Source: an uncultured virus (IMG/VR IMGVR_UViG_3300029305_005063) (Duplodnaviria; Heunggongvirae; Uroviricota; Caudoviricetes). Taken from it: DNA of 64,000 nucleotides. The position numbers and the translations under genes are program-made. The DNA lies in the IMG/VR virus record IMGVR_UViG_3300029305_005063; one strand, written 5' to 3'. How positions within the stretch are numbered: position 1 is the stretch's first letter; every line of letters starts with the position of its first letter. Below the pieces are notes generated by a model that searched no databases, had not been told where the DNA came from, and saw only the letters and a program-made list of their open reading frames with translations. Below are positions 4,431 to 31,764 of the stretch, piece by piece.

Positions 4431-5168
4431 ATGTGGGAAAGTATTAAATCCTGGTTCGGATCTGGAAGCACTTCAAGAGCTAACGACTATCGTCGTCACA
4501 AGCTTGCATTGCTCAAGCCGAAGAACCTCAACAAGTTCCCTCTGTTCAGAGCTTCTCCTGAAGGATTCACGGCTCCAAGGACTGTAGACCTCAGAGACTA
4601 CTGCCCTCCGACAGAGAACCAGAAAGACACACCTTGGTGTGCTGCATTCTCAACTTCTCACTGGATGTCCAACATCAAGTGGAGGATAACTGATAGGTTG
4701 CCTCTCTACAATGCTGAAGACATCTACAAAAAAGCCAAACAGATTGATGGATTTCCGGATCAGGACGGAACTACTCTAACTGCTACTTTACAGGTAGTCA
4801 GGGATGAGATGAAGATGTTCGATCCTAGCTGTGAGATCCAGACGTTCTACGGTCCGGATGGAGTTGAATCCATCAAGTACGCTATCCACAAATTCGGATG
4901 CTGTTTGCTCGGATTCCTCATCACTCAAGAATGGTACAACGTCACCTTCGATAACTCCGAGATTAAAGGAATCGATTCTCCGATACTTGGTGGGCATGCA
5001 GTACTTGCATGTGGCTACAACAAGTTCGGTGTTATCATCCAGAACTCCTGGGGTGAAGGTTGGGGTGAGTACGGTTACGCCATCGTGTCGTGGGATGCAG
5101 TCAGGAAGTATCTCCAGTATGGAGCTGTCCTCACTAGATCCCTCGATGGTCTTGCTCTTCCTAAATGA
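4431..5168 (+). CDS. papain-like cysteine peptidase (C1A family)
   Basis: VDLR, NQ..xxCAAF (catalytic Cys), GGHAV (His), QNSWGEGWGEYGY (Asn) motifs. Confidence 0.9.
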   Translation: MWESIKSWFGSGSTSRANDYRRHKLALLKPKNLNKFPLFRASPEGFTAPRTVDLRDYCPPTENQKDTPWCAAFSTSHWMSNIKWRITDRLPLYNAEDIYKKAKQIDGFPDQDGTTLTATLQVVRDEMKMFDPSCEIQTFYGPDGVESIKYAIHKFGCCLLGFLITQEWYNVTFDNSEIKGIDSPILGGHAVLACGYNKFGVIIQNSWGEGWGEYGYAIVSWDAVRKYLQYGAVLTRSLDGLALPK

Positions 5169-9526: not shown

Positions 9527-10315
9527 TTAAACCCATTCATAACCCCAGACAACGTCGTCACCATATCTGTCATCCTCGACGGTTGTCCTGATCTTACCAA
9601 CTTCTTCAAGCTTGGTAGTCTTACTTCCCTGGAGGACAGTAAATGTTTCTCCAGCTTTTGGTTTCCAGTATCTCAGATAAGCCAGGATGGATGATGTAGA
9701 TGGAGAGCGTATTCCGGTATCGCCCTTCTTCAGAGCAAATCGAATATCTCCCTCTTCACCGAACGTTGCGGCAATCATGCTCTTATCGGGAGATCCAGAG
9801 TCAGTCCTTATCAACCCGTAGGAGTTCTTGACGTCAATCTTCTCTTTGATATAAGATGACTCAGTGATTGGCTTCATACGGTTAGCTGTAGCGTCCATTA
9901 AGTAAATCTCATTGTCGATGTTGATGAGATTGAATACGTGACCTCTACCTGACTTCCACGCACAGGCAATGATAGCACGAGAACCATTGCCCCAACCGCG
10001 CATCGTTTTGGTGATACTAGCGACAGCGTCTTCGCCGATCTTGGTAAATTTAGCGTTCTTAAACAAACACCAGTTTTGTATCGGGTAGGCGCTTCCTTTA
10101 GGTACGTCGAATACTCTATCCCACGGAGAGTTGGTAATCGTAACCTTCTTGTCTACTCCACGGAACTTAAGTTCAAGTGCTGCAGCAAACTTCTGACAGT
10201 TGTTGCTTACTTTGAATTTGCTAACTTCTGCAAGAAGCTTCTTGGCATGTGCCAGTTTAGGACTGTCTTCATCCTTCTTAGCCTCGAGAGCTGGAATCAT
10301 AAGCTTAATACCCAT
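9527..10315 (-). CDS. papain-fold toxin (Tox-PL, glutamine deamidase-like) domain protein with head-protein-like propeptide
   Basis: NNCQKFAAALELKFRG...GHVFNL...YLMDA gives Cys/His/Asp triad spacing; start MGIKLMIPALE|A behind AAGGAGG. Confidence 0.7.
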   Translation of the reverse strand: MGIKLMIPALEAKKDEDSPKLAHAKKLLAEVSKFKVSNNCQKFAAALELKFRGVDKKVTITNSPWDRVFDVPKGSAYPIQNWCLFKNAKFTKIGEDAVASITKTMRGWGNGSRAIIACAWKSGRGHVFNLINIDNEIYLMDATANRMKPITESSYIKEKIDVKNSYGLIRTDSGSPDKSMIAATFGEEGDIRFALKKGDTGIRSPSTSSILAYLRYWKPKAGETFTVLQGSKTTKLEEVGKIRTTVEDDRYGDDVVWGYEWV

Positions 10316-10394
10316 AATCGAATCCTCCTTATGAAATAGCACTAGTTTACACAAAAAGAAGACACCCCAAGGGGCGGTGTCTTCCGAGCCCACC

Positions 10395-10538
10395 TCAACG
10401 ATAGAGGTGAACTCTGTCCTCGATGACTGTGCCGACTTCGACACCATCAACGATGAGGACCGCCGAGCGATCATCGCCGACTACCTTGGCATCCATGCCG
10501 GCAGCAGTGAGGCGATCGAGCATTGCTTCGACTCCCAT
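10395..10538 (-). CDS. small hypothetical protein (47 aa)
   Basis: MGVEAMLDRLTAAG...; coupled to upstream gene, followed by terminator; not in track. Confidence 0.5.
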   Translation of the reverse strand: MGVEAMLDRLTAAGMDAKVVGDDRSAVLIVDGVEVGTVIEDRVHLYR

Positions 10539-11230: not shown

Positions 11231-11347
11231 TTGTATCTCCTTTTGGTTATGACTACAACGGTAATATATTTTCCATTCTGACAGAGAGACAAAAAGAATA
11301 TCCAGGTAGGGTCGAGCATCGAGCCCGACCCTACCGTGGTATCACAT

Positions 11348-11608
11348 TCACTTAACAGGTGCATCGCAGATTTTGCGTCTGACCATGAAGTCATACACAT
11401 CTCCGATCGTGTGCATCTTCTCGCAGTCTTCCTCTTCGATATTAATTCCAAAAGCTTCCTCTAGCGAAATGATGATCTCGACAACATCGAGTTCATCAGC
11501 CCCAAGATCTTCAACGAGGTCGGATGTAGATTTGATATTTTCTAGTCCGACACACACTGTGTCTTCAACTTGTGCGTTGACGATGGATTGCATCTCTTCG
11601 TATGTCAT
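11348..11608 (-). CDS. acyl carrier protein-like, attachment Ser replaced by Glu
   Basis: DLVEDLGADELDVVEIIISLEEAFGINI...TIGDV matches ACP except DSLD->DELD (GAA codon at 11492-11494). Confidence 0.85.
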   Translation of the reverse strand: MTYEEMQSIVNAQVEDTVCVGLENIKSTSDLVEDLGADELDVVEIIISLEEAFGINIEEEDCEKMHTIGDVYDFMVRRKICDAPVK

Positions 11609-11650
11609 GGATGTTGTCCCTTATTAAGTGTAACCTTCCGTGAACTATAG

Positions 11651-11731
11651 CTGCGACGAGCGGACTCGAACCGCCGGCGAGACTGTCCCGACTAGTGGGA
11701 CACGGTGCTACCTACAACACCCCCTATCGCA
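11651..11731 (-). ncRNA. tRNA-like RNA with aberrant anticodon loop (ACUAGUC)
   Basis: Cloverleaf: D arm GGUG/CACC, 6-bp anticodon stem UGUCCC/GGGACA, T arm GGCGG-UUCGAGU-CCGCU, acceptor with bulged A; no U33/R37, no CCA. Confidence 0.7.
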
Positions 11732-11789
11732 ACGTCAGACAATGGAATTCGGTCCATTGTCATTATCCTAGCCATTCTTTTTCCGACTT

Positions 11790-12340
11790 GTATACCGATG
11801 GCCAGTTATCTGACACGTTCAGAAACTAGATTTTCCACCAAGTACACTAGGCTCGTTCGGGCCAATGACGAAGCAGCCCACTTTCCTATACGATTAAGCA
11901 TTGCCTTAATTTTTAATGTTAGACCCAGGAGATGTCTGCACCTAGAGAATCAACTCTAGGTTAAGAGCGTTCACACGTATTCCTCATCTCCTACACACAA
12001 CCACAGCATAACCCAGATCCACAAGACCGTATCGATCCGTTCTCGTTTCGTTATACCACAATTGTGCAAGGGTAGCATAACCCTGCCTAGGTTCCGTCTA
12101 TTCTGCTAGCGTTACCCACAAGCCGTCCGGTTTCCGATCCGCCTGTGAACTAACCCTGTTCAGCATTACGTCTCTCAACGCACTTTGCATCCCAGGAAAT
12201 CAAGGCCCATGAGAGACTTTCACTCTCAACACCCGTAAATGGCAACAGGGCGTTATTTACCACAGACGTATTTGTATCCAATCGGTTGCCAATCGACAAC
12301 GCCTGTGCCGGAATAACTGTTACCACGTTCGTAGCAGTAC
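11790..12340 (-). ncRNA. large structured ncRNA (~550 nt), OLE-like candidate
   Basis: No credible ORF; ends pair (CAGUUAUUCCGGCAC 12319-12305 with GUGUCAGAUAACUG 11816-11803, extended by GUGGU/GCCAU and GUACUG/CGGUAU); many internal hairpins. Confidence 0.65.
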
Positions 12341-12405
12341 GTGCATGCTAGCTATCATGCGCGGTTACCGTGTTTTAACTAATGAGTCTACACTTGTTGA
12401 ACGCT

Positions 12406-13827: not shown

Positions 13828-13899
13828 GAATTGTTCTCCTTGTTGTAAGATAAGCAAAAAAGAAAGTGTGTCAAGGTTAGTGTCCCGACTATTACGCCG

Positions 13900-13974
13900 A
13901 TACCCGATGGGACTCGAACCCACTACCTCTGAGAACGTTGCTCAGCGATTCTTACCAAATGAATCTACTGGGCA
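13900..13974 (-). ncRNA. tRNA-like RNA with aberrant anticodon loop (CAACGUU; nominal ACG)
   Basis: D arm GAUUC/GAAUC with GG, anticodon stem CUGAG/CUCAG, T arm GUGGG-UUCGAGU-CCCAU, acceptor with bulged A; no U33/R37, no CCA. Confidence 0.7.
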
Positions 13975-13996
13975 GGCACGCCTTGACACACGAGAT

Positions 13997-14392
13997 TGGT
14001 GGAGGTGGCGAGAGTCAAACTCGCGTCCGCTATGCAGCACCTGCACATTCGTTCACATGCTTAGTGATCAATTAGTCGGCTCATATACCAGGACGGCTAA
14101 TCACGACCTAACCTGATACATGTCGAGAGCATCGAGACCGCCTCTTGTACTAATCTAAGCTCATCTCTCAATACAGCTTAGATAGACCAGTGTAGATTAC
14201 CCTGAACGTGCTACTCTGATTCCTCGCACATCCAAGTAAGGTCTCGGGTTATACCCGGGCTGACTTAGGCAGCCGCCTTGTACTCAACGTGATTGTTGGC
14301 ACTTATGGTTTTGCATCCGTCGTTAAGGAGTAGGATACATCTCCTGCATGCATGTACATTTACCGTCACAACGTCGAAATCGGTTCACCCCC
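13997..14392 (-). ncRNA. ssrA: tmRNA; tag peptide (A)ANNHVEYKAAA*
   Basis: 5' GGGGGUG...UUCGAC, 3' CACCUCCACCA with G3-U pair; AUAAGU-GCC resume context; tag ends AAA-stop. Confidence 0.95.
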
Positions 14393-14415
14393 GTTGTTGA
14401 AGAGCTAGCTACTTT

Positions 14416-14553
14416 AACAGGTCTGCGCCACTAGACCCAACCGCACCTCACGAGGAGGGTTTGATATCGCCTGCGGCATCCACTTGTTGGGATGGGGCTA
14501 CCTCGATATAAGTTCGAGTGTTCAAGCCTGGAAGTTACCAGACATCACCTGCT
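14416..14553 (-). ncRNA. 6S-like rod-shaped RNA
   Basis: Nested stems AGCAGGU/ACCUGUU, AGGCUUGA/UUGGGUCU, AUAUCG/CGAUAU, CAUCC/GGAUG around a central bubble containing ACCCUCCUCGUGAGGUGCGG. Confidence 0.5.
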
Positions 14554-14569
14554 GATCAGGCAAGAGGAA

Positions 14570-14697
14570 GTAAGAGCTGAGCTTAGAGATGTGAAGGTCG
14601 GATCCTCTCCTGGTGTTACCCAGGCCGATACCCCGATGATCTAGTAGTTAATTATAATCGCACCTCACCTTGCGCTCAGAGCACAGTTGGCTCTTGC
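14570..14697 (-). ncRNA. second rod-shaped structured RNA
   Basis: GCAAGAGC/GCUCUUAC, CUGAGC/GCUCAG, GAGGUG/CAUCUC, CCUGG/CCAGG nested stems with an AU-rich bulge. Confidence 0.4.
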
Positions 14698-14919
14698 TCC
14701 AGGGTAGACGAGTTCATTGACTTAGAACGTAGTTAGACTGGTACCGAGAGAAAGCACGAAGCAAACTCTAAGTCCTCCAGAGATAGGTCGTTCAAGAATA
14801 GCCGGTTCGTCACACTCCGCGCTATCGAAATTGCGTTTGCGAACAACATCCGGCGCAAAACCGGCAAGAGATAACATCGTGACGCGTTAATGAAGCTACC
14901 ATAGTTGTCGATCGCGCGC

Positions 14920-15015
14920 ATTACCGACAAGGGAATCGAACCCTCCATTCAAGAACTCATACTCCCTAGATCCACATCAAGTACGGAGTCGAACCGCATC
15001 GGGAGTATTGTCACG
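14920..15015 (-). ncRNA. RNA with two T-arm/T-loop hairpins
   Basis: UGCGG-UUCGACU-CCGUA and GAGGG-UUCGAUU-CCCUU; first enclosed by AUACUCCC/GGGAGUAU. Confidence 0.55.
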
Positions 15016-15030
15016 ATGTTAAAGGTAAGC

Positions 15031-15108
15031 TGGTGGCGGGGACGGGAATCGAACCCGTATAGCTCGCGTTATGAGCGCGCGTCAGTTCCAGTCCTGACCC
15101 ACCCCGCA
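15031..15108 (-). tRNA. tRNA-Met (CAT), initiator-like acceptor
   Basis: Cloverleaf with CU-CAU-AA loop, encoded CCA, U1:C72 mismatch. Confidence 0.9.
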
Positions 15109-22331: not shown

Positions 22332-23225
22332 TCAGAATGAATACCCTAAGCATATCCCGCCATAGTCGGGACGATGTTTCTGATGCTCGAACTCGCGTGT
22401 TCTCCATATTCCGTACCAGGAGAGGTAGAGCTTGTCGTATTGAACAACTATGCCGCCTCTTAACTCTGTTACGAATGGTTCTATGTCAACGTCGAGTCCG
22501 TCATCTTTGTGACCGAACATACTCCCTTCGAGGATGTGGTTGTACAAGTAGTACCGTTCTCCACAGCCTGCGAACACATAGCAGGAGAGTTTGTCCAGCC
22601 AGCTCCTGGAGTCAGGACTAGAGGCGCTGAACAGGATGTCGTTACCGACAGAGTGTCTCATGTTGTAACCTAGCTTGAGGTCACAGCCTATCTCTGCCAT
22701 ATCCTGTATAGTGCCAACAGCAACACCAGCTCTAGGGACTATAGCCAGCCAGTCTGTCACGTAGTAGTTATATTTAGTCCACCACTGACCATTAACGACG
22801 AACTCGTCGTGTAATTGGTTGTCCCATCCCTTAGGATCCTTACAGTCCAGGATCTTGTGGATGAACTTCTGTGTATGCTCGCATCCTGCACTAGGACCTA
22901 TAGCACCGAAGTTGATCTCTCCGTAGTGAGTCCACGGTGATAGCGGATCGTTGACGAACTCGTATCCGATACCTCCGATGAGCATACCACAGTAAGGTCG
23001 ATCACCTTTGATGTGTTCTTTGACACGGAGATCGCTAGGCGTGTACATGTTCTGGTTAACAGAATAGTGCCAGCGATCATCGACTATTTTAAGCCCTGTG
23101 CCATGACTGTAGTCATTATCTTGCTGCACAAGGAAGCAGTCGTTCTCCATGGTTAAGTACGCGTCCACCCCGTACACACATACACTTGCCAAGCAACAGG
23201 CAACAAATGTAATGATGTGTTTCAT
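22332..23225 (-). CDS. lpxR: lipid A deacylase LpxR family outer-membrane beta-barrel
   Basis: Signal peptide; END...DYSHG, QNMYTP, DRPYCG, GAIGPSAG..TQKFIH, PKGWDNQL motifs; terminal Phe. Confidence 0.85.
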   Translation of the reverse strand: MKHIITFVACCLASVCVYGVDAYLTMENDCFLVQQDNDYSHGTGLKIVDDRWHYSVNQNMYTPSDLRVKEHIKGDRPYCGMLIGGIGYEFVNDPLSPWTHYGEINFGAIGPSAGCEHTQKFIHKILDCKDPKGWDNQLHDEFVVNGQWWTKYNYYVTDWLAIVPRAGVAVGTIQDMAEIGCDLKLGYNMRHSVGNDILFSASSPDSRSWLDKLSCYVFAGCGERYYLYNHILEGSMFGHKDDGLDVDIEPFVTELRGGIVVQYDKLYLSWYGIWRTREFEHQKHRPDYGGICLGYSF

Positions 23226-30943: not shown

Positions 30944-30999
30944 AGGATGGTTGTCTTAACCACCATAATTTGACTTATTCACCGAAAGGAGAACTAACA

Positions 31000-31764
31000 A
31001 TGAAACGTCTATTTTGTGCCCTGATTCTGGGCACCTTTATGGGTTGCGAGACCCCTGAACCGTGTGACCAGTGCACCCCTAAAGACCCCTCTACTTGGGT
31101 GGTCTGTGTGGGTATGGAGAACTCTCTGTTTGCAGGTCAGTGTCCTGGCGCTGAATACGACTGCAAGAGGATGGTTCGCCTCCTCGGTCAATACACGACC
31201 AACATCAACTCGTTCATCTCTTCCCAGGCGACTTACGCCAAGGTGAAGGCTGCTCTTACCAGAGCTGCTGAGAATGCTGATCTCTTCATCTTCTACTACT
31301 CCGGTCACGGCGGTGCTGCTGCAACCGGTAACAAACAGGAAGCCGATGGTCAAGATGAGTTCCTCTGTCTCTGGGATAGAGAGATGATGGATGATGATCT
31401 CTGGAGTATCATCAGCAAGTGTAGAGGCAGAGTTGTGTTCATCGCTGATTGTTGTCACTCAGCCACGATGTACCGGGCGCCTGCACCTATCACGCTCAAA
31501 CATGCAATTCCGTTGCAGGCTACGCACAATGTTGATGGTGCACTTAGTTTGATGGTATGGTCTGGTTGTCCCGATGACACCTACTCCTATGGCGATGCCA
31601 ATGGAGGCAAGATGACCAACACTCTCCTCAAGTACTTCAACCCCGATAAGTCTTATGACTACATCTGGAGTTGCATTGAGAACGACAAGAGTCTCAAGAA
31701 GTACGAGGAAGTGCAGCGTACTCTCATGGGTCCGAGGTTCGGATCCAAGAAGATCTTCCGATAA
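31000..31764 (+). CDS. lipoprotein metacaspase / C14 peptidase
   Basis: MKRLFCALILGTFMG|C lipobox; FYYSGHGG, EADGQDE, IADCCHS catalytic His/Cys dyad. Confidence 0.88.
   Translation: MKRLFCALILGTFMGCETPEPCDQCTPKDPSTWVVCVGMENSLFAGQCPGAEYDCKRMVRLLGQYTTNINSFISSQATYAKVKAALTRAAENADLFIFYYSGHGGAAATGNKQEADGQDEFLCLWDREMMDDDLWSIISKCRGRVVFIADCCHSATMYRAPAPITLKHAIPLQATHNVDGALSLMVWSGCPDDTYSYGDANGGKMTNTLLKYFNPDKSYDYIWSCIENDKSLKKYEEVQRTLMGPRFGSKKIFR

Follow-up and report, generated by a model that had tools for sequence, protein, structure and literature searches.

A conserved acyl carrier protein-like gene product with glutamate at the phosphopantetheine site in a phiKZ-like phage of the ruminant gut, probably a binding decoy

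The window analysed here is a 64,000-nucleotide stretch of the IMG/VR record IMGVR_UViG_3300029305_005063 (G000), a viral fragment of 73.7 kb with an estimated completeness of 28%. It contains a short gene for a protein with the fold of an acyl carrier protein (ACP), accompanied on the same strand by a tRNA gene and putative expression signals:

11348..11608, minus strand: gene for an ACP-fold protein of 86 amino acids with Glu39 at the position of the phosphopantetheine Ser and a net charge of -16 (ORF, phmmer, PF00550, AlphaFold model, phrog_5934)
11492..11494, minus strand: codon GAA of Glu39, with which helix II of the model begins (sequence, contig comparison, model)
11617..11622, minus strand: purine-rich hexamer 8 nt 5' of the ATG, resembling a ribosome-binding site (sequence; putative function)
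11286..11339, minus strand: strong hairpin followed by a U-rich tail directly 3' of the stop codon, likely a terminator (folding energy -33.5 kcal/mol, z -6.7)
11650..11731, minus strand: tRNA-Leu(TAG) directly upstream of the ACP-like gene, possibly co-transcribed with it

The minus strand is the coding strand, the plus strand of 11348-11608 being interrupted by stops, and the plus-strand letters TTC at 11492-11494 read GAA (Glu39) on it. The encoded protein contains the motif DLGADELDVVE, scores 29.8 bits against the PP-binding family PF00550 (curated cut-off 20.8) and represents the single PP-binding match in the 73.7-kb fragment. A consensus terminator scan made no call at the hairpin. With respect to expression, the gene is partly spanned by a contig of one RNA run (83% identity, depth 4.3), no contig was recovered for it in four other RNA runs at 85% likeness, and in two of these four the sequence diverges directly past tRNA-Leu. 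The contigs are compatible with expression of the gene as well as with its absence.

Just upstream of the tRNA-Leu, about 660 nt of the minus strand (11740-12400) hold no convincing gene. Contigs of all four RNA runs span much of this region, with indels between strains, and the flanking genes are mostly bare. The predicted fold beats 20 shuffles (z -3.5) and the region has no match in Rfam, which makes it a candidate for a large phage non-coding RNA. In the related phage G001 described below, a 780-nt gap (fold z -1.2) lies between the ACP-like gene and a tRNA-Asn. The two regions have one 17-nt word in common (E 0.04) and gave no global alignment, and a search with this word yielded nothing further.

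The sequence-only reading had described an ACP with Glu in place of the attachment Ser, and the comparison with known carriers agrees with this: phmmer aligns the motif position by position with DLGADSLDVVE of the Aquifex ACP 2ehs (E=1.7e-14). By the genetic code, any Ser codon needs at least two substitutions to become GAA, and a sequencing error had been regarded as unlikely on these grounds. It can now be ruled out by family conservation and by contigs from other runs. All 21 full-length family members of 86 amino acids (71-97% identity) have Glu39, and contigs of three out of four runs (X4, X14 and X15, the last ending 14 nt away; X1 stops short of the codon) span the codon without a change there among the differences listed. 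An 81-residue relative keeps the Glu as well; a 70-residue match differs at the N-terminus and lacks the motif. There is no alternative Ser in or beside the motif, as Ser occurs only at positions 8, 27, 29 and 48. Down to 71% identity, the length of 86 amino acids is constant, stops are absent, and motif and core are invariant. Cys19, Cys62 and Cys81 are found in 21/21 relatives and Cys37 in 17/21, the protein of the window having Ala at position 37. A two-residue switch immediately preceding the motif reads Gly-Ala in 4 and Lys/Arg-Cys in 16 of the 21 relatives.

The AlphaFold model (pLDDT 92.1, pTM 0.83) predicts the four-helix fold of ACPs, with helices at residues 3-18, 39-53, 59-63 and 68-77. 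Bacterial ACPs superpose on the model with deviations of 0.7-0.9 A, the solved ACP 1x3o with TM scores of 0.88/0.94 and an rmsd of 0.9 A; identity to 2ehs in the structural alignment is 43%. The acidic recognition helix II is retained: D38, E39, L40, D41, V43, E44, E50, E51, F53, I57, E58 and E59 are invariant in the 21 relatives, among them the acidic helix II residues D38, D41, E44, E50 and E51. In this set, conservation of the docking face is free of pattern selection, whereas helix II conservation in the cross-phage sets below is partly circular, because the search patterns required helix II. The Ser with which helix II begins in phosphopantetheine carriers is replaced by Glu39 throughout.

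G000 is a phiKZ-like jumbo phage of the ruminant gut. It encodes a phiKZ-type internal head protein together with RNA polymerase subunits, and the sequencing runs matching it best are faeces, sheep and bovine gut metagenomes. Its three tRNAs and one tmRNA include a cluster of tRNA-Arg, tmRNA (tag ANNHVEYKAAA) and tRNA-Met at 13899-15108. A papain-fold glutamine-deamidase-like domain (9527-10474), a papain-family protease (4431-5168) and a caspase-family protease (30970-31764) were also observed. The complete phage G001 (265 kb) is related, with 18 of 82 ORFs in common and an RNA polymerase 51% identical to that of G000. Its ACP-like protein is only 29% identical to the one in the window and likewise has Glu at the site. 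Adjoining genes for isochorismatase-family, NAD synthase and NMNAT-Nudix proteins form an NAD salvage module in G001 (L405:5315-7945). A search for related loci in viral contigs returned 0 loci.

Both phages encode an LpxR-family (lipid A deacylase-like) outer-membrane protein (22332-23225, minus strand, E 1e-58 in G000; 64% identical copy in G001), which shows that these phages touch envelope lipids. The search recovered 154 LpxR homologues at E<=1e-30. As a general companion of ACPs without Ser, LpxR was rejected, being present in one of 15 records, namely G001. Concerning the host, an LpxR search of 301 genomes sampled from one phylum recovered distant matches only (26-34%), and a host search in the Atlas gave no match.

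A search for similar ACPs in phage proteins, as had been proposed from the sequence, revealed that Ser loss recurs in unrelated phages. Among 19 named phage records, 12 have Ser, five Glu and two Asp at the site; the Ackermannviridae have an acidic residue in 6/6 and swap Glu and Asp, which fits a role of charge rather than fixed chemistry. The 636-kb phage LR756504 possesses two tandem Glu-type ACP genes (L084:1614-2183), whose neighbours presumably resemble the CCA-adding enzyme and IF-3, and ACPs without Ser occur in marine phages, too. An open site-codon scan of viral sequences yielded 115 motif matches from 120 loci (sample of about 190 stretches), of which 101 have Ser, ten Glu and four Asp. 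Two overlapping scans that excluded Ser gave 59 parsed matches in 14 clusters (11 purely acidic, one Ala/Gln/Asp, one Leu, one Pro) and 67 matches in 20 clusters (15 purely acidic, two mixed, one each Asn, Leu and Thr). The 11 acidic clusters out of 14 correspond to a binomial p of 2.6e-7 against 2/13 and of 2.5e-4 against 0.3. A Gly/Arg/Cys/Trp scan added 2 matches; the site-residue scans covered codons other than those of Phe and Tyr.

Non-acidic residues are found in one freshwater phage family (Ala/Gln/Asp, 26 records), in another family with Glu or Val, and in single clusters with Leu, Pro, Thr, Asn, Gly or Trp. By cluster count, residues one step away from Ser (Thr, Ala, Pro) are rare and the two-step residues Glu and Asp dominate. 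Acidity at the site is strongly favoured but not universal, and loss of Ser is the sole universal feature. A profile search with Glu-type ACPs mostly returned ordinary carriers (109 S, 1 SS and 1 P among 111 new matches), and a metagenome scan found Ser in all of the best 80 loci. Gene neighbours vary by lineage (dUTPase, MazG-like, CCA-enzyme-like, tRNAs). One phage family (L317, L321, L324, L329 and related loci), whose site residue is Ala, Gln or Asp, has a MazG-like gene immediately preceding the ACP gene. Two loci encode rIIB-family proteins with a fused Asp-type domain, N-terminal in one case and C-terminal in the other (L343:1468-2658, L330:1412-2623).

The sequences point to repeated independent origins of acidic-site ACPs as likely, though not proven: a Ser-type protein is the nearest neighbour in the sequence set for 17 of 36 acidic-site sequences, and the best trees require 9 and 17 changes. 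One origin is compatible too, as a single acidic clade has an AU p of 0.45 in a test that omitted 14 rows (ten long or Ackermannviridae, three non-acidic, one duplicate) and the trait column.

Acidic-site domains are not confined to phages. One strict Glu-type pattern, counted alone and not alongside its Ser version, occurs at 12 loci in 185,579 prokaryote genomes, three of them stand-alone and nine fused in larger proteins: STAND-TPR, proteins beside MoxR-like ATPase and TIR/FGE genes, RHS-like and DUF4190. A signal- or membrane-like segment precedes six of the 12 domains, which may be extracytoplasmic, and a Ser-type ACP is also present in four of five such genomes checked. The fusions L093, L095, L096 and L087 include a STAND-TPR protein on a Streptomyces plasmid and an RHS-like protein with two such domains in tandem; some we take to lie beside, or to resemble, MoxR/vWA-associated systems. 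Two stand-alone ACPs (L094:3908-4144 and P0013) are 69% alike over the core and come from records labelled Nostoc and Streptomyces. To our eye both look proteobacterial, which suggests that they are mobile or mis-binned.

An ACP without its Ser can take up neither phosphopantetheine nor thioester cargo. The earlier claim that the protein cannot carry acyl chains is supported for the canonical site by established ACP biochemistry and by the E. coli ACP variant S36T, which cannot be modified according to the accessible text of PMC3340395. AcpS matched in 0/16 records of phages with Ser-less ACPs, and FAS, PKS and acyltransferase Pfam families gave no match among 176 of 201 G001 ORFs scanned. PPTase or FAS/PKS pathway genes are absent from the scanned ORFs of G000 (28% complete) and G001, so that we found in the records scanned no phage-encoded pathway for this pseudo-ACP to serve. 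Lacking Ser, AcpS and a pathway, what remains is the binding surface.

We hold with middling confidence that the pseudo-ACP is a non-loadable decoy that would bind a host ACP-binding protein, probably one of lipid synthesis. Its acidic helix II would dock on the basic patch with which a host enzyme binds ACP, and the Glu39 carboxylate may occupy the place of the serine-phosphate link of holo-ACP. As it could not be loaded, handed on or recycled, the protein would compete with host ACP. This explanation is judged the most likely because apo-ACP inhibits glycerol-3-phosphate acyltransferase and the obligate-apo mutant S39A suppresses E. coli growth, as described in the accessible parts of PMC4736557 and PMC3896788. 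Membrane-lipid synthesis (glycerol-3-phosphate acyltransferase, FAS II or lipid A acyltransferases) is our tentative choice of target class, followed by an ACP-binding defence or stress protein, which we consider unlikely. MukB, named as a partner beforehand, is not known outside some gammaproteobacteria, so its candidacy hangs on the host. SpoT, also suggested, is unlikely: the accessible text of the review PMC3896788 states that it does not bind apo-ACP, and the equivalent of Met44 is Ile in the window's protein (Met in 16/21 relatives), the very exchange recovered in 11 clones of a screen for loss of SpoT binding (PMC3340395, accessible text).

The idea that Glu mimics the phosphate charge was borne out in its prediction, since acidic residues are strongly over-represented at the site across phage lineages, but not as an exclusive explanation. 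Glu is also well suited to open a helix, so its recurrence may have causes other than phosphate mimicry. Several points speak against a decoy: some phage families have non-acidic residues at the site, most phage ACPs retain Ser (101/115 motif matches, 12/19 named records), half of the bacterial Glu-type domains may be extracytoplasmic and would then face no FAS to mimic, and a lytic jumbo phage may depend on the lipid synthesis of its host instead of blocking it.

The main competitor, in our opinion unlikely, is a role as structural subunit of, or adaptor to, a protein of the phage itself, like that of ACP in MukBEF or complex I; the exposed Glu or Asp might for example complete the MIDAS, the Mg2+ site in a vWA domain. 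Such sites bind a ligand Glu or Asp. The Ackermannviridae fit this picture, as their vWA gene lies directly upstream of the ACP gene in 18 loci, DxSxS, Thr97 and Asp127 are invariant across 12 aligned vWA proteins, and both products have one match each in the accessible part of a virion proteome table (PMC10892097); the rIIB fusions in two arrangements would suit an adaptor, too. On the other hand, vWA was found in only 7 of 22 records, six of these being of Ackermannviridae size and having the gene next or close to the ACP gene, and neither in G000 (28% complete) nor in the complete G001. As a general partner it is unsupported beyond Ackermannviridae and one other record, and the neighbours differ across lineages. 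Rather unlikely as well is a binding module for which the loss of Ser alone matters (an obligate apo-ACP or a lipid or metal scaffold), Glu stabilising the start of helix II or adding a cation ligand. This would account for Glu39 opening helix II in the model, for the tolerance of Ala, Gln, Val, Leu, Pro, Thr, Asn, Gly and Trp elsewhere and for the same change in bacterial, perhaps extracytoplasmic, fusions, but not for the dominance of two-step acidic residues over one-step Thr, Ala and Pro.

That the protein is a different type of covalent carrier, with its load on the Glu39 carboxylate or on one of the three invariant cysteines, appears very improbable. LysW-type carriers do use a Glu, and the cysteines are conserved in the close family as listed above; yet position 37 is Ala in G000, the G001 protein is without these cysteines in the alignment, Glu and Asp swap in other lineages, and no ligase or pathway was seen among the scanned G001 ORFs. 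We give least credence to drift of a host ACP that was captured and became non-functional. Codon changes between close strains are not mostly silent (X14: 6 replacement versus 3 silent, a very small sample), which would fit drift, whereas the fixed length without stops, the invariant motif and core, the retention of Glu at 29% identity in G001, and the gene's own RBS-like site and hairpin argue against it.

On a broader and more speculative reading, which we regard as fairly improbable, phages would repeatedly have converted the ACP of their hosts into a gene-encoded phospho-mimic of holo-ACP. Such pseudo-carriers would form a general class that jams either lipid synthesis or a so far unrecognised defence, each dependent on ACP, and the bacterial STAND-TPR and MoxR-associated fusions would possibly serve as bait for ACP-targeting phage proteins. 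Phage genes annotated as acyl carrier proteins are often counted as metabolic helpers, and about 12% of the motif matches in the viral sample (14/115) cannot be carriers. If they are decoys, ACP-dependent steps would be a phage-host battleground and these proteins small natural inhibitors of an essential hub. One phage family of the Ser-less class is in culture, which opens the question to direct experiment.

The pseudo-ACP is real and conserved, falls outside the functional ACPs as a variant of their fold family, and is probably a binding decoy. We found no description of phage ACPs without Ser in the full-text literature, mostly outside subscription journals and supplements; the accessible text of PMC13573597 classes phage ACPs with metabolic or host-interface genes and is silent on the Ser. 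What the locus contributes is a gut lineage of phiKZ-like type that has retained Glu over a deep divergence, a tally of the residues replacing Ser, and the bacterial fusion domains. In comparison with AcpP, the ACP of type II FAS (PF00550; PDB 2ehs, 1x3o, 1l0h), the phage protein is alike in four-helix fold, DxLD motif frame, acidic helix II and size; it differs in having Glu where AcpP has the Ser for cofactor attachment, in its three invariant Cys and in a C-terminal tail, and no AcpS/FAS genes were found with it. The phage families PHROG 5934 and 4154, which include Ackermannviridae Vi01_122c and relatives, have the same fold and are named acyl carrier protein in public records, without comment on the Ser that most other phage ACPs keep; the Ackermannviridae proteins have a loop insertion and a vWA neighbour, both absent from the G000 locus. 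Like the engineered obligate-apo ACPs E. coli S36T and S. elongatus S39A, over-expression of the latter suppressing growth (PMC4736557, accessible text), the phage protein should be non-modifiable, but it is natural, conserved and acidic at a site where the mutants are neutral. With ACP as a structural subunit of MukBEF, complex I and NFS1-ISD11 it would have in common the use of the ACP fold as a binding partner, those ACPs bearing Ser and the phage protein Glu39.
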